DNA from: a virus
Lineage: Duplodnaviria; Caudoviricetes
Virus record (IMG/VR): IMGVR_UViG_3300001598_000034
Location: 1-64,000 of that record
DNA: 64,000 nucleotides
Strand: one strand, 5' to 3'
The position numbers and the translations under genes were made by a program. Below the pieces are notes generated by a model, which saw nothing but the letters and a program-made list of their open reading frames with translations, made no database searches and had not been told where the DNA came from. This document shows positions 27,047 through 48,844 of the stretch, piece by piece (the first letter of the stretch is position 1; the number at the start of each line of letters is the position of its first letter).

Positions 27047-27125
27047 TGGTACACGGATTCGGACTCGAACCGAAAACACCCGCGTTCTAAGCGCGGTACC
27101 TAACTGCCAATTGGGTTATCCGTGC
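27047..27125 (-). tRNA. tRNA-Leu(UAG), short variable loop
   Basis: Cloverleaf; CCGCG-CTTAGAA-CGCGG anticodon arm; GTTCGAG T-loop; encoded CCA. Confidence 0.85.
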
Positions 27126-27128
27126 ACA

Positions 27129-27401
27129 TGGTAGGCCGCGAGGAATTCGAATCCTCACTGGAAGGTTTTTCTTGCCACTATAGTTTTCACTACCTACAAA
27201 ATAGTTTGTGGTCTGGACTATGTCTTCTTCTCAAAGAGAAGGCTGGTGTATAGTCTCTACGCATTTACGAATAACTATATTCGATTTAGTACGGCGTTGT
27301 CATTTTAAAGAGTTCGCCGTTTAGCCAACATTCTAATATACATCACTGCATAATAGCTCAAAAAATAAGACCTTTGTCTCTACCTATTGGACTAGCGGCC
27401 C
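27129..27401 (-). tRNA. tRNA-Leu(UAA) interrupted by a group I intron
   Basis: Exons 27401-27367 and 27170-27129 join to AAGGT-CTTAAAA-ACCTT; T-arm and CCA present. Confidence 0.85.
27171..27366 (-). ncRNA. Group I self-splicing intron (196 nt, no ORF)
   Basis: 5' exon ends in U and the intron ends in G; IGS UUUUUUGAG; core R/S elements GTAGAGACTA and AAGACATAGTCC. Confidence 0.88.
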
Positions 27402-27423
27402 ATTATTTAATTTCTCTACTAAG

Positions 27424-27495
27424 TCCTCTGGGGAATATTCGAAATTCCGTGTCACAATTATAAGTTGTGCATCCTAACCGCTGGATGACCAGAGG
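27424..27495 (-). tRNA. tRNA-Ile(UAU)-like, embedded in an extended hairpin, no encoded CCA
   Basis: CACAA-CTTATAA-TTGTG anticodon arm, D and T arms present; acceptor stem continues as a perfect duplex spanning 27410-27510. Confidence 0.7.
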
Positions 27496-27519
27496 ACTTA
27501 GTAGAGAAATATTTTCAAT

Positions 27520-27595
27520 TGGAGCGGGATACGAGAAGTTGCACTCGTTACTACAGCTTGGAAGGCTGTTATTTTTCTACTTAAACTAATCCCGC
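27520..27595 (-). tRNA. tRNA-Gly(UCC)
   Basis: ACAGC-CTTCCAA-GCTGT; CCA; atypical T-loop. Confidence 0.85.
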
Positions 27596-27598
27596 AGT

Positions 27599-27672
27599 TG
27601 GAGCTCCCAGGTCGTTACGATCGGCCGTCTAAAGTTTACAAAACTCTTGTAATACCATTATACTATGGGAGC
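27599..27672 (-). tRNA. tRNA-Thr(UGU)
   Basis: AGAGT-TTTGTAA-ACTTT; CCA. Confidence 0.85.
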
Positions 27673-27674
27673 AT

Positions 27675-27764
27675 CGGATATCCGAGGACTTGCACCCCGA
27701 CACGGCTGTTAACCGCTACTGGTAGTTTTCAAGACTACTCCCTTGCTATTAGGGTTAGATATCC
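27675..27764 (-). tRNA. tRNA-Ser(UGA)
   Basis: GTAGT-CTTGAAA-ACTAC; long variable arm; G discriminator; no encoded CCA. Confidence 0.85.
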
Positions 27765-27767
27765 ATA

Positions 27768-27841
27768 TGGTCCGAGCAGCATTAATCGAAAATGCGATCC
27801 GTGATCCCAAATCACGAGTTATACCACTTAACTATGCCCGG
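27768..27841 (-). tRNA. tRNA-Pro(UGG)
   Basis: CGTGA-TTTGGGA-TCACG; CCA. Confidence 0.85.
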
Positions 27842-27847
27842 ATAAAT

Positions 27848-27924
27848 TGGTGCAGCGCCGAAGATTTAAACTTCGATAATCTCGATTAAAAGTCGAGTGC
27901 ACTAATCAGTTATGCTAGCGCTGC
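27848..27924 (-). tRNA. tRNA-Lys(UUU)
   Basis: CTCGA-CTTTTAA-TCGAG; CCA. Confidence 0.88.
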
Positions 27925-27925
27925 G

Positions 27926-27997
27926 TTTCTGGGGCTGGATTCGGACCAGCGCATCGTGGAGTCAAAGTCCACTGTCTTACCGCTTGACTACCCAGAA
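27926..27997 (-). tRNA. tRNA-Gln(UUG)
   Basis: GTGGA-CTTTGAC-TCCAC; no encoded CCA. Confidence 0.85.
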
Positions 27998-28002
27998 ATA
28001 AA

Positions 28003-28078
28003 TGGCGGCGACGACTTGGATTCGAACCAAGAAAAGCGGTTTTGGAGACCGCCGGTTTACCATTAAGCCTATCGTCCC
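28003..28078 (-). tRNA. tRNA-Trp(CCA)
   Basis: GCGGT-CTCCAAA-ACCGC; GTTCGAATC; CCA; irregular acceptor stem. Confidence 0.8.
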
Positions 28079-37993: not shown

Positions 37994-38075
37994 GTAAAAA
38001 AGGAGGGACTTCTATACCGAGCTTTTCAGCACGGTATAGAAGGTAGGAAGAAAAAATCTAAAGCATCCTACATAA

Positions 38076-38198
38076 TACTTATACCATTTTTTACTCAATT
38101 TTTTCGACTACAAAATTGGTATTAAATAGCATAAGTATTCAGCTCCCGTAAACCACTCATTGGAACATACTAAATATCTCCGCATAATACTTATACCA
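38076..38198 (-). promoter_or_regulatory. Tandem leftward promoters (ATGGTATAAGTATTATG twice)
   Basis: Repeated extended -10-like motif at the point where transcription diverges. Confidence 0.6.
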
Positions 38199-38229
38199 TT
38201 TTATACTATATTTTTTTGATCTAAAAAAC

Positions 38230-38240: not shown

Positions 38241-38275
38241 CAACTAGAAAATACTATATTAGGAAGGAGTCTTTT

Positions 38276-39031
38276 ATGACTACAGATAAAAACGATAAAG
38301 TATCTATTGGAGAAAAAGTTAAAACAAAGCATTCTATTCTAACTTATAATCCAGATACAAATTCTAATACCTTTCTAGACTATACCGAAAAGACCTTACA
38401 TACAAACTATGATAAGCTATATGAAATCAAAACAAAGAGAGGCTATAGCATAAAGGTAACAAATGACCATAGCTTAATAACTAATGGTTCTGAAGACTTT
38501 TTTGAAAAGGTGTCTCCAGATAAAGCTCTTGGTAAGTTTGTTCCAGTTCTGTATAGTTTAAAATGTGGATTTAAAAAGTACAAAACAGCAAAAGACTTAA
38601 TCAATGATAAGCATACAATAGAATTAACTGCAGAATTATTAAAGTATGATGATATGACTATATGCGCAATAATATCCTTATTGTCTGTACCAGATAAAGA
38701 TGATGAAAAGTTAATGCATATTAGATACTTTAATAAACTAGAAAAATACATTATTCTTTTACTACTTGCAAGGTTATCTTATTTTGTAGAGAAAATAACA
38801 GATGAAGAAATCTTAGCAACACTTTATAAAGGAAAACAAATACCAGAAAATAATAAACTAGTAGATGCAGAAGAAGTAGTTAACGACAATCCTGCTAATC
38901 CATACTTATCACTTCCTTACTCCTGGGATGAAATAATAGAAGTGAATGAAGTAGAGAGAGAAGAGATTACCTATGATTTCTCAGTGCCGCGATATCCATT
39001 ATTTATGGCGAATGGAATCATAGTATTTGAT
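38276..39031 (+). mobile_element. Intein C-terminal fragment (252 aa), lacking block A and ending in Asp
   Basis: Block B IKVTNDHSL; blocks F/G TYDFSVP..P.FMANGIIVFD followed by Thr+1. Confidence 0.75.
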
Positions 39032-40984
39032 ACAGTAATGGTTCATACACCTGTATCAGCAGAAGCCAGACAAGAAGCATTAGACAAGATGCTTCCTAGC
39101 AAAAACTTATTCCATCCACGCACAATGGCGCCTATACTAATGCCACGTCAGGAACATATCTTCGGTTTTTATCAAGCATCAAAAGATATTCCAGAGTTAA
39201 GAAAGAGCAATGTTAAAGCAGAATCCGTTATGGATTTGGATAAACTTCTTCAAGATATTAAAATGGGAAAAGTAAAACCAGATATGCCTGTAAGATATCA
39301 AGGGCAATTAACAACAGCAGGAATTGCAATAGCTATAGGTAATTTGCCACCGATGCTTAGAGACTACAATATGGTATGGGATAAAAAGAATATTACAAGA
39401 GTTATGGGAATGTTGGCAAAGCAAGAACCAACTAAATACCAATTTGTAGTAGATCTTTTTAAAGAGCTAGGTGGTTTATATGCTTATAAATTAGGATCAA
39501 CTTTCAAACTATCAGATTTTGATTTACAAAAGTTGAAAAAAATGCGCGATGCGTATTTCTCTAAAACAGACAAAGCTTTAGCAAAGATTGATAATAGCAA
39601 TTTATCTAAACAAGAGAAAGAACAGCGCATTGGTGAAGAACTACGTAAAGCACAAGCATTTGCCTCCAATTTAATGGAACAGCAAACAAATAATACTTTC
39701 AATAGACTTTATGTATCCGGAGCAAAAGGAAGTGGAGGACAGATAACACAGATTTTATCTAGTCCTACAGTAGTAGCAGACCCTAAAAACAGATTGATCC
39801 CTTCTCTTATTCACCATTCATATTTAGAAGGACTAAGCCCTGCAGACTATTTTACATCAAGTTACGGTACACGTAAAGGTAGTATTGCAGCTAAATTATT
39901 TGTAGCACCTGCAGGAGCTCTTTCCAAAGAAATAATGGGAAATACTCTAGAAGTAGTAGTATCATGTAAAGAATGTGGTACTGGTAGAGGGTTAAAGAGA
40001 GACATAGATGATAAAGAAAATGTTCTCTATAGACTAGAGGCAGGAACAAATAAATTCATAGATCCAAATTATTATGAACAGTTAAAAAGAAAAGGAATCA
40101 GAGAAGTAACCGTTCGTAGCCCTGCAACATGTGAAGCAAGAGAAGGTGTTTGCCAACATTGTTTCGGTTTTGATGAAAAGATGCAATTCCCAGAAATAGG
40201 CGAAAATGTCGGAGTAATGGCGTCCCAAGCAGTATCCGAAGTAATTTCTCAGAATACCATTTCTTCTAAGCATACAGCAGGAACTGCAGCAGAAGATAAC
40301 TATGGATTTAATGAAGTTAAAGCTTTCTATAATATGTCTTCTAAGTTCTCTGGAGCAGCTGTTATTTCTGAGGTATCTGGTAAAGTATCTAAGATTGAGC
40401 AGTCAGCAACTGGAGGTATGAATGTATTTATAGACAAAAAGAAATACTTCGTACCCCCTGGAAGAAGGGTTACAGTTGTCTTGGGTCAGGATATTAAAGC
40501 TGGAGATCCTATTTCAAATGGAATTATGCCATTTAGCAAAATAGTTCCTCACAAAGGTATAGAACAAGGTAGGCAACTCTTTATTGAAGCAGCTAACGAT
40601 ATTTATAATAAAGCTGGTGCACATACAATAAAGAAGAACCTAGAAACAATTTCTCGTGGACTTATTAACTATGTAGAGATAACAGACCCAGGAGATTTTG
40701 ATGAGTATGCAGAAGGAGATATTGTGGATTACAATAAGCTCATGGGAGATCTGCGTATGCACCCTGGTAAAAAGAAACCAGTATATCACCCAATCCAAAG
40801 TGGCACAAATAAATCCCCAACATTTAAAAACGACTGGTTAGATAACTTTGGCTTTAAGTTCTTAAAACAAAAACTTATTGACAACGCAGCAACGTTCTCT
40901 AAATCTCCGAAGAAACAATATAATCCAATCGCACCCTATGCACGCGGAGTTGGATTCGGAAAAGGTGAAAACGGAAAATACTAA
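38276..40984 (+). CDS. rpoC: Multisubunit RNA polymerase beta' subunit, C-terminal half, preceded by a split-intein C fragment
   Basis: VHTPVS.EA..EA; SGAKGS; bridge helix YF.SSYGTRKG; CGT; VRSP.TC...GVC..CFG zinc site; trigger loop GENVGV.A.Q...E...Q.T...H..G. Confidence 0.92.
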   Translation: MTTDKNDKVSIGEKVKTKHSILTYNPDTNSNTFLDYTEKTLHTNYDKLYEIKTKRGYSIKVTNDHSLITNGSEDFFEKVSPDKALGKFVPVLYSLKCGFKKYKTAKDLINDKHTIELTAELLKYDDMTICAIISLLSVPDKDDEKLMHIRYFNKLEKYIILLLLARLSYFVEKITDEEILATLYKGKQIPENNKLVDAEEVVNDNPANPYLSLPYSWDEIIEVNEVEREEITYDFSVPRYPLFMANGIIVFDTVMVHTPVSAEARQEALDKMLPSKNLFHPRTMAPILMPRQEHIFGFYQASKDIPELRKSNVKAESVMDLDKLLQDIKMGKVKPDMPVRYQGQLTTAGIAIAIGNLPPMLRDYNMVWDKKNITRVMGMLAKQEPTKYQFVVDLFKELGGLYAYKLGSTFKLSDFDLQKLKKMRDAYFSKTDKALAKIDNSNLSKQEKEQRIGEELRKAQAFASNLMEQQTNNTFNRLYVSGAKGSGGQITQILSSPTVVADPKNRLIPSLIHHSYLEGLSPADYFTSSYGTRKGSIAAKLFVAPAGALSKEIMGNTLEVVVSCKECGTGRGLKRDIDDKENVLYRLEAGTNKFIDPNYYEQLKRKGIREVTVRSPATCEAREGVCQHCFGFDEKMQFPEIGENVGVMASQAVSEVISQNTISSKHTAGTAAEDNYGFNEVKAFYNMSSKFSGAAVISEVSGKVSKIEQSATGGMNVFIDKKKYFVPPGRRVTVVLGQDIKAGDPISNGIMPFSKIVPHKGIEQGRQLFIEAANDIYNKAGAHTIKKNLETISRGLINYVEITDPGDFDEYAEGDIVDYNKLMGDLRMHPGKKKPVYHPIQSGTNKSPTFKNDWLDNFGFKFLKQKLIDNAATFSKSPKKQYNPIAPYARGVGFGKGENGKY

Positions 40985-40991
40985 TATTAAT

Positions 40992-41020
40992 CGAGAGCTT
41001 TTAATTAAGCTCTCTTTTTT
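40992..41020 (+). terminator. Intrinsic terminator
   Basis: GAGAGCTT-TTAATT-AAGCTCTC followed by a T run. Confidence 0.75.
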
Positions 41021-41101
41021 TAGGTATAATATTAAGTAGAATTAAAAAATAAATATGAATATAACAGATCAATATTATTTTTAGAATATGGAGACTAATA
41101 T

Positions 41102-45886: not shown

Positions 45887-48844
45887 ATGTTAGGTAAAAG
45901 ATATTCTCTTGGAAGTGTATTTGAACCAACAGGCGAACCTCTTGTTAAAGTAGCTAACTTTAAAGAACTTGCACAACAAAGCGAAGATATTAAATCTTTT
46001 TTAGCTACCTTTAAACCAGATCCTGGATATATGTATTTGCACGTAATAGCTGTAGGAGCCGGAGAATACTGGGGTAAAAATATCAATAGCGATTATTTCT
46101 TGGAAGATGATTTACTTAATAGGTATAAAACTTTTGAGACAGACGCAAAGGTATTTCGTGAACATGATAATAAACCATATTCCCAGTCATATGGTTATGT
46201 ACCATTTGCTTGGTATAATATGCCAATGCATAGAGTAGAACTTATTTTAGCTATAGACAAGATCAAAGGTAAAGAGTTTGTAGATAGACAAAATGCTGGT
46301 GAGCAGTTATGCGTAAGCATGGGATGTTTCCCAGCAGGAACAGACGTACTACTTGCAGATAATACCTTTAAACATATTGAAGACATAAATCCCGGAGATA
46401 AAGTAATTACGCACACAGGGGAAGAGCATGAAGTAACAACTAAAATGCTTCATGAACATACCGGGAATATGTGCAGAATTAAGGCTAGTGGTCAAACGCA
46501 AGAGCTTATATGCACCGACAATCACCCAATCCTGGTAAGAAGATATACTGGATTATTAGAGGATAGTTATGGAGAATGCCCTGTATGTAATAAAAAGTTT
46601 AATCAGGTTTTAACGCATATAATACGGTCTACAAATAAAGAGCACATTGTTTATAGAAATAATATGTTAGATCATAAGTATTTGTATAAACAATATTGGA
46701 CAGATGCAAAAAATATATTACCAGGTGACTTTATATTAACGCCAATTACAAAAGCAACTTCAGACCATGTAAAAAATATAGACTTAGCAAAAATAATAGG
46801 ATATTTTTTGGCAGAGGGATCTTTTGTAAAAAATAAGAAAAAAGAATATAGAGCTATACAATTTAATTTTCATAAAAATGAGATAAATTTACATCAAGAT
46901 GTTCTTGGAGCACTAACTAATCTATCTCAAAAAATAGCTTCATATCAAATAAGAGAAGAAAAGCATTTAGGTGTTATATCTCTCTATGATGAGCATTTAG
47001 CAACTACTATTAAACGATTTTGTGGAGAATATAGTAAATATAAAGTATTAAACCCAGATGTATACACTTGGACATTAGAAGAAAAGCTATATATTATAGG
47101 TAAATACTTTGATGGAGATGGAACCTTTAATAAAAAGCATAAATCTCTATCAGCAACAACAATATCTAAAAATTTAGCGTATTCAATAGCCAGTTTAGCA
47201 AATACATGTGGAATTTCGACCCGTATTTCATCATATAATGGAAAACATAATATAGAATATACTATAGATATAGATAAAGAAGATACAAAAAAATTAAAGT
47301 GTTTTTGCTCTAAAATACCAGAAAACTATTCATATACTAGAAAATATAAAACAATTAAAAAATCATTTGTAGATGATGGTTTTTTGTGTAAAAGAGTTTA
47401 CTCCATAGAAACTTACTACGTGAATAACTTACCAGTGTATAATCTATCCGTAGAGGGAGACGAGTCATACACAGCAAACAGCATAGCAGTACATAATTGC
47501 AGAGTTAAATTCGACGTATGTTCCCTATGTGGTAACCATGCATCTAAACCACATGAATACTGCGAACATATAAAATACCATAAAGGAGAAATTTTTCCTG
47601 ATGGTAAGCAAGCCTATATGATTAATCCAAATCCTACGTTTTTTGATATTTCAATCGTTCGTAGGCCAGCATGGAAGCCAGCTTTCTGTTTAGCAAAAGT
47701 AGCTTCTACAGATACAGATGTAAATACTATGAGTATCCAGGAAAAGAATGCACTAGCATTTGAGGAACTGGATTCATTGATACCAATGGAAAAGACAGCT
47801 GAAGTCTGGGAAATACCAGAAGATGATGAGCTGTTAGGCGCCAAGGTATTAGCTAAACATTCGTCAGTTCAAAAGGTAGCTCTAGATAAACAAATGCCAG
47901 CTATTTCAGTCCAGGATATAGATGCTGAAATAAGAGATATGCTTCCAGCAATTAATAAACTGGAGCCAGATCTTCCAGCCCCTCTACTTGATGACTTAGC
48001 TAGAAAGTATGAGATAAAAGATATTCTGCATTCCTTTGCTTCAGCAGCTATACCAATGAAACCACAAGAGTTTACACGTATAGTAATTGTTAAGAACAAT
48101 CTTCCATTAGAAGCATTTGGAACAGTAATGACCGGAATATTAGGGTCATTCCATGGTAATGGTAAATCCGGATCTGGCAATACAGAAGTAGCAACGCCAA
48201 ACATCCTTCCAGGAATTTCACGACCAGAAATAATGGAAAAACTAGCACCATTTATCCATGCTCGTTCAGCAATCTTGAAAGATGTGTTATCAAGACTAAA
48301 TAGAATATTTGACACAAAAGAACTACAAAAGCTAGGTCTTAATAAAACAGCAGCGGTGTTATATCAACCAAATCCAGTACTGGATTCTTTAGATTTATCA
48401 CCACGTATGAACTTTGGCTATGTACGTAGAGTTCCAGAATTTCAAGATTCAAATAGAGGTCTTTCTAAAGATACTGTTTTAGTACAAGATCCAATGAATT
48501 TGTCTACTATGCCAGTAGCACTTTCCAGAGAATCATTGGTACAGGAAATTCGTAACCCGTCTATTAGCGACTATTCACGTAATCAACTTTTGGCATTAGG
48601 TGCATTACAAGGAAAAGATTTCTCTGCATTTAAAGATCCTAGAATTATAAATTCTGTAATACATGAACCAGGGTTCTTATCTTATTTAGCACTATTAATA
48701 AACTCTTTCAAAAGTAAAGGAACTAAAGCAGCTTCGCCTTTGGATACTAAGAGCATTCTAAGTAATGTTTCCTTAGAGCACTTAACAAATGCTTACAATC
48801 CTGTACCACGTATAATTTCACAAGAATATTATACAAGATACTAA
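45887..48844 (+). CDS. Prohead (capsid maturation) protease with an intein
   Basis: N.N.DYF, VFREH, VSMG|C...VCSLCG..CEH, FFDISIV..PA after removing the intein; upstream of the capsid genes. Confidence 0.75.
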   Translation: MLGKRYSLGSVFEPTGEPLVKVANFKELAQQSEDIKSFLATFKPDPGYMYLHVIAVGAGEYWGKNINSDYFLEDDLLNRYKTFETDAKVFREHDNKPYSQSYGYVPFAWYNMPMHRVELILAIDKIKGKEFVDRQNAGEQLCVSMGCFPAGTDVLLADNTFKHIEDINPGDKVITHTGEEHEVTTKMLHEHTGNMCRIKASGQTQELICTDNHPILVRRYTGLLEDSYGECPVCNKKFNQVLTHIIRSTNKEHIVYRNNMLDHKYLYKQYWTDAKNILPGDFILTPITKATSDHVKNIDLAKIIGYFLAEGSFVKNKKKEYRAIQFNFHKNEINLHQDVLGALTNLSQKIASYQIREEKHLGVISLYDEHLATTIKRFCGEYSKYKVLNPDVYTWTLEEKLYIIGKYFDGDGTFNKKHKSLSATTISKNLAYSIASLANTCGISTRISSYNGKHNIEYTIDIDKEDTKKLKCFCSKIPENYSYTRKYKTIKKSFVDDGFLCKRVYSIETYYVNNLPVYNLSVEGDESYTANSIAVHNCRVKFDVCSLCGNHASKPHEYCEHIKYHKGEIFPDGKQAYMINPNPTFFDISIVRRPAWKPAFCLAKVASTDTDVNTMSIQEKNALAFEELDSLIPMEKTAEVWEIPEDDELLGAKVLAKHSSVQKVALDKQMPAISVQDIDAEIRDMLPAINKLEPDLPAPLLDDLARKYEIKDILHSFASAAIPMKPQEFTRIVIVKNNLPLEAFGTVMTGILGSFHGNGKSGSGNTEVATPNILPGISRPEIMEKLAPFIHARSAILKDVLSRLNRIFDTKELQKLGLNKTAAVLYQPNPVLDSLDLSPRMNFGYVRRVPEFQDSNRGLSKDTVLVQDPMNLSTMPVALSRESLVQEIRNPSISDYSRNQLLALGALQGKDFSAFKDPRIINSVIHEPGFLSYLALLINSFKSKGTKAASPLDTKSILSNVSLEHLTNAYNPVPRIISQEYYTRY
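46325..47497 (+). mobile_element. Intein (391 aa) with a LAGLIDADG homing endonuclease
   Basis: CFPAGT start; CTDNHP block B; IGYFLAEG and GKYFDGDG; VYNLSV...SY.AN..AVHN followed by Cys+1. Confidence 0.93.

Follow-up and report, generated by a model that had tools for sequence, protein, structure and literature searches.

A phage RNA polymerase beta' subunit encoded by two distant genes and probably joined by a cysteine-independent split intein

We analysed the first 64,000 nucleotides (the window) of a 146,590-bp virus record from the Caudoviricetes (Duplodnaviria), IMGVR_UViG_3300001598_000034, whose G+C content is 34.8%; positions given below are those of the window unless they are marked as genome positions. 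An open reading frame (ORF) of 902 residues, located at 38276-40984 on the plus strand, begins inside an intein and continues into the C-terminal half of the beta' subunit of RNA polymerase (RNAP). The gene for the N-terminal half, which ends in the remaining piece of the same intein, lies ~84 kb away on the opposite strand of the same 146.6-kb contig. We consider it probable that beta' is made from these two distant genes and that the split intein would trans-splice the subunit at its catalytic loop. Most likely the element functions as a cysteine-independent split intein of the AceL/GOS-TerL-like type, in which the N-terminal intein part (IntN) is short. This view is based on the observed gene structure, the boundaries of the intein, its conserved catalytic residues, its fold and its conservation across genomes.

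The C-terminal intein part (IntC) extends from Met1 to a terminal Asp252 (38276-39031), as delimited by a Pfam profile, by structural matches and, for the boundary, by intein-less relatives. The Pfam profile Intein_splicing (PF14890) matches residues 8-250 over its positions 9-153 of 155 with an E value of 2e-12; the first ~8 profile positions remain unmatched, and block A is therefore missing from this ORF. Upstream of the ATG the frame closes after 17 codons, and nothing similar to block A was found in this short open stretch. A reading of the ORF from the sequence only, made without database searches, had described it as starting within an intein that contains block B (TNDH) and blocks F and G and lacks block A, and as ending in IIVFD/T rather than HN (slashes mark junctions). 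Both descriptions held: the blocks are present, and the end reads GIIVFD252/T253, with Asp in last position in 27 of 27 family members. The end of the intein part, which that reading had set at 39100, has to be moved to 39031.

The remainder of the ORF (39032-40984, 650 residues plus the stop codon) is the C-extein, which starts TVMVHTPVS and constitutes the C-terminal half of RNAP beta' (beta'C). Pfam detects Rpb1 domains 4 and 5 downstream of the intein, the latter with an E value of 7e-16, and the tblastn matches of this part are phage RNAP beta' genes. A strong Shine-Dalgarno sequence, AGGAAGGAG (38261-38269, plus strand), was read off the sequence 6 nt 5' of the ATG, and the gene is closed by an intrinsic terminator at 40993-41021, composed of an 8-bp stem (40993-41014) followed by a T-run. 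Of the promoter and ribosome binding site that had been attributed to this gene, the latter is thus borne out, whereas sigma-70-type hexamer matches are no commoner than in shuffled sequences, so that an own promoter is unconfirmed. The non-coding stretch directly upstream of the gene also contains an exact 19-nt repeat, ATAATACTTATACCATTTT, in 2 copies on the plus strand (38072-38090 and 38184-38202), where 0.15 would be expected by chance; this repeat may be a phage promoter.

The extein start TVMVHTPVS corresponds to the beta' residues that immediately follow the catalytic DFDGD, as the sequence-only reading had stated and as intein-less relatives show, and the motif itself lies outside the window. 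Scanning the whole contig in six frames for the RNAP catalytic motif D(F/Y)DGD gave no occurrence in an RNAP context within the 64-kb window, and the sole RNAP-type motif of the contig belongs to the minus strand, near genome position 122.95 kb. The locus reads ...KLDYDGD, then SVSGDTVVVVKDNETGKIEVKEIRDVD, then a stop codon. The separate partner gene that had been predicted was therefore found when it was searched for, with an end of the form ...DYDGD-S, 26 more residues and a stop. Its IntN is a 27-residue tail that begins with Ser1 and block A (SVSGDTVVVV) and ends ...EIRDVD; the prediction of a "very short" IntN went too far, 27 residues being comparable to the AceL and GOS-TerL inteins. 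The IntN stop codon sits within a G+C-rich hairpin with a T-run after it, and it is a true gene end.

Upstream of this exon, an ORF of 1313 residues encodes the beta subunit (Rpb2 domains 3 and 6) fused to the N-terminal part of beta' (beta'N; Rpb1 domains 1 and 2), and the beta-beta'N gene is broken twice ahead of the DYDGD exon. The first interruption is a group I intron of 259 nt (Rfam RF00028, 80.5 bits). Judged by the U·G pair in P1 and the G at its end, the junction is ...NRAPSL/WKLNHQAF, which agrees with the sequence NRAPSLWKYNH of the uninterrupted relative P0075. The second interruption, of 226-232 nt, is located between the codons for ...TGF and those for KLDYDGD (genome 122968-123199, L001 4969-5200, minus strand); it matches no Rfam family, folds better than shuffled sequences (z -2.8) and is single-copy in the genome, and its candidate exon junctions are TGF/KLDYDGD and TGF/VTKLDYDGD. 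In five relatives (P0075, P0076, P0088, P0089 and P0092) the beta'N ORFs end at the same point, just before DFDGD, which suggests that they carry a homologous element. A Pfam-based search of the whole contig returned a single copy each of beta, beta'N and beta'C; with this single gene set, the phage's own multisubunit polymerase depends on the split genes.

Two more group I introns, of 78 bits each, are found on the minus strand at L001 1429-1650 and 2090-2310 (genome ~119.4-120.3 kb), in or beside a fragmented gene for the terminase large subunit, and one of them is 86% identical to the beta'N intron. The stretch L001 4200-4266 (genome ~122.2 kb, minus strand), ~600 nt 3' of the IntN gene, resembles the hepatitis delta virus (HDV)-like ribozyme family RF02682 (HDV-F-prausnitzii), with 41 bits and an E value of 8e-5, below the gathering score of 44.

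Comparison with relatives devoid of the intein fixes its boundaries. In these more distant relatives, beta-beta' is unbroken and reads DYDGD/T(L/M)Q(I/L)HVP or DFDGD/AM.., the general pattern after D(F/Y)DGD being T/A-M-x-(V/L)-HVP. Since DYDGD leads there directly into T...HVP, removal of Ser1...Asp252 restores the native loop exactly. Shifted boundaries, with the intein beginning at the last Asp of DYDGD and ending with Phe251, would give the same product and were rejected, because neither junction would keep a nucleophile. The first C-extein residue, Thr253 (39032-39034), would be the +1 nucleophile, and it is Thr in 27 of 27 split proteins, as opposed to Thr or Ser in 23 of 58 intein-less relatives (Ala 20, Thr 16, Gln 12, Ser 7, Lys 2 and Glu 1). 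As a nucleophile at +1 is needed for ligation only, its fixation in the split family counts for ligation.

The split arrangement is shared by a whole family of phages. Homologues of the IntC-beta'C protein were searched among 5.8 billion proteins and counted as cluster representatives, which gave 26 homologues of 865-905 residues with 43-59% identity. All 27 proteins start within the intein, with a first strand of consensus VLTYNP after a leader of 2-21 residues, and Thr62, His65, Asp234, Asp252 and Thr253 are invariant in all of them; the penultimate intein residue is Tyr in the family and Phe in this phage. For the other half, 30 cluster representatives of beta-beta'N end in DFDGD plus an IntN tail of 24-32 residues, in which Ser1 and Gly4 are invariant (30/30), Asp5 and Thr6 are nearly invariant and the ending ...(I/L)(K/R)(D/N/E)V is shared. 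In IMG/VR relatives whose N-half is uninterrupted, the ORF reads through to DFDGD/SV(A/S)GDT... and then stops. Three genomes that are 96-100% complete (G001, G003 and G004) hold both halves, two of them having direct terminal repeats, and in the two relatives with a reported orientation the halves are 50-105 kb distant from each other and on opposite strands. The GenBank phage collection contained no relative covering the intein part, its best beta'C matches being 29-30% identical, and an exhaustive profile-free search with IntC returned its own family plus weak matches to other inteins and nothing else. A comparison of the charges of IntN with those at the beginning of IntC, made to see whether they are complementary, gave no consistent pattern.

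Conservation is distributed very unevenly along IntC. A variable leader (residues 1-19, 38276-38332), with a mean pairwise identity of 29% and a predicted local distance difference test (pLDDT) value below 50 in the structural model, precedes the first conserved strand, ILTYNP. The HINT N-lobe (residues 20-94, 38333-38557, 63% identity) contains the invariant His42 (38399-38401) and block B, VT62NDH65 (38459-38470), with Thr62 and His65. It is followed by an inserted alpha/beta domain of ~110 residues (residues 95-205, 38558-38890, 27%) and by the HINT C-lobe (residues 206-252, 38891-39031, 70%), which carries block F, TYD234FSV (Asp234 at 38975-38977), and the block G end GIIVFD, with Asp252 (39029-39031) as last residue. 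The C-lobe aligns with blocks F and G of the Pho/Pab CDC21-1 and Ssp DnaB inteins. Across the same 27 proteins the polymerase part shows 62% identity; conservation of the splicing lobes thus equals that of the polymerase, which places them under the same constraint as this essential enzyme, while the insert is decaying. The insert is probably the decayed remnant of a homing endonuclease, and a Pfam search for LAGLIDADG domains gave zero matches in it. Cysteine occurs in at most 14 of the 27 sequences in any column of the intein.

The AlphaFold2 (AF2) model of IntC matched solely inteins and related HINT domains in Foldseek (E 1e-5). All 50 of the 50 structural matches listed are autoprocessing domains of the HINT fold, almost all of them inteins with a few bacterial intein-like (BIL) and Hedgehog domains, at Z scores of 8-14. 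With VIA-align, the endonuclease-bearing inteins 2cw7, 7qss, 7qst and 1dq3 align over 224-250 residues (Z 11-14), and mini-inteins over 103-143 residues (Z 9-10). Because the ~110-residue insert aligns with the extra domains of the large inteins, IntC is not part of a mini-intein. In the trimmed structural alignments the mini-intein chains match from their residue ~21-26 on, and judging from the model the residues before this point would be the portion that IntN supplies. Inteins with Ser1 have an additional important histidine, termed NX, which follows Lys or Arg upstream of block B (PMC10189870). Two positions are candidates for it: the invariant His42, preceded by Leu, Val or Ile, and position 45, at which at least 90% of the members have His, often after Lys, and this phage has Tyr.

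We propose that the two proteins are spliced in trans by the class 1 pathway, with oxygen nucleophiles. After translation, IntN would dock onto IntC as the missing first strands of its HINT fold. Ser1 would then undergo an N-O acyl shift, the resulting ester would be transferred to Thr253 (Thr+1), the terminal Asp252, which replaces the usual Asn, would cyclise and free the intein, and an O-N shift would give the native loop ...DYDGD-TVMVHTPVS. The ligated junction peptide is expected to be ...DYDGD-TVMVHTPVSAEAR, and solely after splicing would the Mg-binding loop be continuous and rid of an insert of ~280 residues. The association of the halves, the splicing itself and the cyclisation of Asp are what we infer from the two genes and their relatives. 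Natural split inteins with an IntN of 15-37 residues do trans-splice (PMC10189870, PMC11766414). According to PMC4031507, which cites Amitai et al. 2004, inteins that terminate in Asp or Gln are able to cleave their C-terminal junction via cyclisation, and some inteins can do without the penultimate His.

Several observations weigh against such a mechanism. Two RNA interruptions must leave the beta'N gene, and one alone is recognisable as a group I intron; the canonical His-Asn of block G is replaced by Phe/Tyr-Asp throughout the split family; the AF2 model of IntC is of moderate confidence (pLDDT 68.5, from an alignment of 5 sequences); the invariance of Thr+1 could stem partly from shared ancestry; and the residue at -1 is Asp (DYDGD), which has been described as a limitation of earlier intein-based systems (PMC11842431). 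The non-canonical block G and the Asp at -1 would both suit a scheme in which the intein halves merely associate or cleave, with no ligation, the nicked catalytic loop being functional and the intein being retained or cut off. Such a scheme also gains from the fact that many RNAPs, of the phiKZ/AR9-type, cyanobacterial and archaeal, tolerate a split beta'. Here, however, the break falls inside the Mg-binding DFDGD/T loop and not in a surface linker, and a retained HINT domain of ~280 residues would be expected to occupy the active centre. Moreover, every residue of the full splicing pathway is invariant, and Thr at +1 is fixed well beyond what intein-less relatives show. We therefore consider that association or cleavage with no ligation is unlikely, and that trans-splicing is the better account of the two genes.

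An assembly break, which the sequence-only reading had itself raised as an alternative, would be conceivable for a metagenome-derived contig that is classed as linear and 92% complete, and the two further insertions in the N-half gene could likewise point to an inversion in one defective genome or to a pseudogene. Against this stand the proper start or stop signals and terminator at the ends of both halves, the recurrence of this architecture among independent cluster representatives (26 for IntC and 30 for IntN), with identities as low as 43%, the presence of the split in complete genomes with direct terminal repeats, the polymerase-like constraint on the splicing lobes and the position of these genes as the sole RNAP set of the genome. 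Because the split recurs in the family and in complete relatives, a break or a single dead genome is excluded as its cause, and we regard artefact or decay in any form as extremely improbable. A further possibility is that splicing depends on conditions and, in the manner of a switch, times the assembly of the polymerase. The halves do lie in distant, separate transcription units, and cyclisation of terminal residues other than Asn can be slow in some inteins (PMC4031507); on the other hand, Ser and Thr nucleophiles make redox control unlikely, and a neutral rearrangement that was later fixed explains the separation equally well. A regulatory switch had also been put forward from the sequence only; nothing supports it as regards timing, redox, pH or another condition, and we think a timing switch very unlikely. 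It is an unlikely proposal that this is a naturally optimised Cys-independent family, with dozens of diverged natural variants, whose Asp-driven last step may make RNAP assembly conditional, for example on pH or on expression order, and thereby a developmental checkpoint.

A short IntN is known, but rare, among natural split inteins; examples are AceL-TerL (25 + 104 residues), GOS-TerL (37 + 115 residues) and PolB16 OarG, with an IntN of 15 residues (PMC11766414, PMC10189870). The present family resembles these in its short IntN (27 residues, 24-32 in the family), which carries block A and the next strand, in an IntC that holds almost the entire HINT fold, and in its phage or metagenomic source. 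The Ser1 nucleophile is shared with GOS-TerL and PolB16, and cysteine-independent junctions, here Ser1/Thr+1, with PolB16. In contrast to all three, the host protein is RNAP beta', at its catalytic loop, instead of a terminase or DNA polymerase; the intein ends in Asp instead of Asn, with no penultimate His; the 252-residue IntC bears an endonuclease-like insert of ~110 residues and is not a mini-intein; and the halves are encoded 50-105 kb apart on opposite strands. The AceL, GOS-TerL and PolB16 inteins were absent from the PDB sequence matches of IntC and from the structural matches listed. A cyclisable terminal residue other than Asn is also found in the Chy RIR1, CIV RNR and Pab PolII inteins (Amitai et al. 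2004, as reported in PMC4031507). Unlike in CIV RNR and Pab/Mma Pol II, which PMC4031507 presents as single-chain, the Asp here is invariant (27/27) in a split family and is paired with a penultimate Phe or Tyr. The sequence-only reading had called both a split near the N-terminus and a terminal Asp rare, and the literature supports it on both counts, Asp and Gln ends being variants (PMC4031507).

Production of an essential polymerase from two genes, rejoined by what would here be trans-splicing, recalls the cyanobacterial DnaE intein and the split inteins of "fractured" genes (PMC2677866, PMC4760082), and as for DnaE the arrangement is fixed across a whole lineage. These inteins differ in being split at the canonical site of endonuclease insertion, with an IntN of ~100 residues, an IntC of ~35-50 residues and a Cys nucleophile, and the fractured genes differ also in that their halves adjoin, flanking an endonuclease gene (PMC2677866, PMC4760082). 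Inteins in RNA polymerase subunits are known from archaea, eukaryotes and their viruses (PMC4760082, PMC1635734), and AR9-like jumbo phages are reported to have genes that contain introns and inteins (bioRxiv 10.1101/2020.12.14.422802). No RNA polymerase with a split intein turned up in the literature searched. The new features of the family are its host site, an invariant terminal Asp in a split intein, a large IntC with an endonuclease remnant and the wide separation of the halves.

An indication of its origin is provided by two contiguous inteins at the same DFDGD/T site of related phage beta-beta' fusions, of 355 residues in P0132 and 466 residues in P0090. Both start with Ser1, contain LAGLIDADG motifs and end in HN before Thr, and a His in them aligns with His42. 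They share with the split family the insertion point, Ser1, Thr+1 and alignable blocks B and F/G; they differ from it in being single-chain, with a His-Asn end and two intact LAGLIDADG motifs, and identity over the blocks is ~30%. A contiguous intein of this kind at the same site is the most likely ancestor of the split family, which would have arisen by loss of endonuclease function and a subsequent genome rearrangement within the intein.

Other insertions were observed around this site. The phage beta-beta' fusions P0101, P0102, P0103, P0134 and P0141 carry a long insert after the catalytic D-x-D-G-D; these inserts start Q-Q-L or F-Q-Q, share the sequence ...TARFKE... and have a first residue that is not Cys, Ser or Thr, which is not an ordinary intein start. 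Many more relatives contain other inserts at the DFDGD site whose first residue is Ser. In addition, beta-beta'N proteins of ~1750 residues (P0055-P0064 and similar) possess an extra contiguous intein with a LAGLIDADG domain (PF14890 and PF14528) upstream of DFDGD, which is missing from the ~1370-residue forms and from the 1313-residue ORF of this genome.

Split inteins that combine a short, synthesisable IntN with the absence of a catalytic Cys are very rare and much wanted (PMC10189870). For protein engineering, this family offers ~30 diverged natural pairs, to which it adds a terminal Asp, a feature little studied in any split intein. The beta' gene is also fragmented to an extreme degree: for its Mg-binding loop to be complete, two RNA interruptions have to be removed and, probably, two protein pieces have to be spliced in trans. 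Despite this complexity, a diverged phage clade has kept the split arrangement by stable inheritance. The DFDGD/T site of phage beta' can be regarded as an intein hot spot. Should assembly of the polymerase indeed be conditional, protein splicing would act as a developmental checkpoint in a virus.

Two further elements lie elsewhere in the window. A second intein, canonical and of 391 residues, occupies 46325-47497 on the plus strand, inside an ORF at 45887-48844. It runs from Cys1 (VSMG/CFPAGTDV) to ...SIAVHN/C, contains two LAGLIDADG motifs and matches the Pfam intein profile at its C-terminal end. On the minus strand, at 27047-28078, a cluster of eight tRNA genes comprises those for Leu, Ile, Gly, Thr, Pro, Lys, Gln and Trp.

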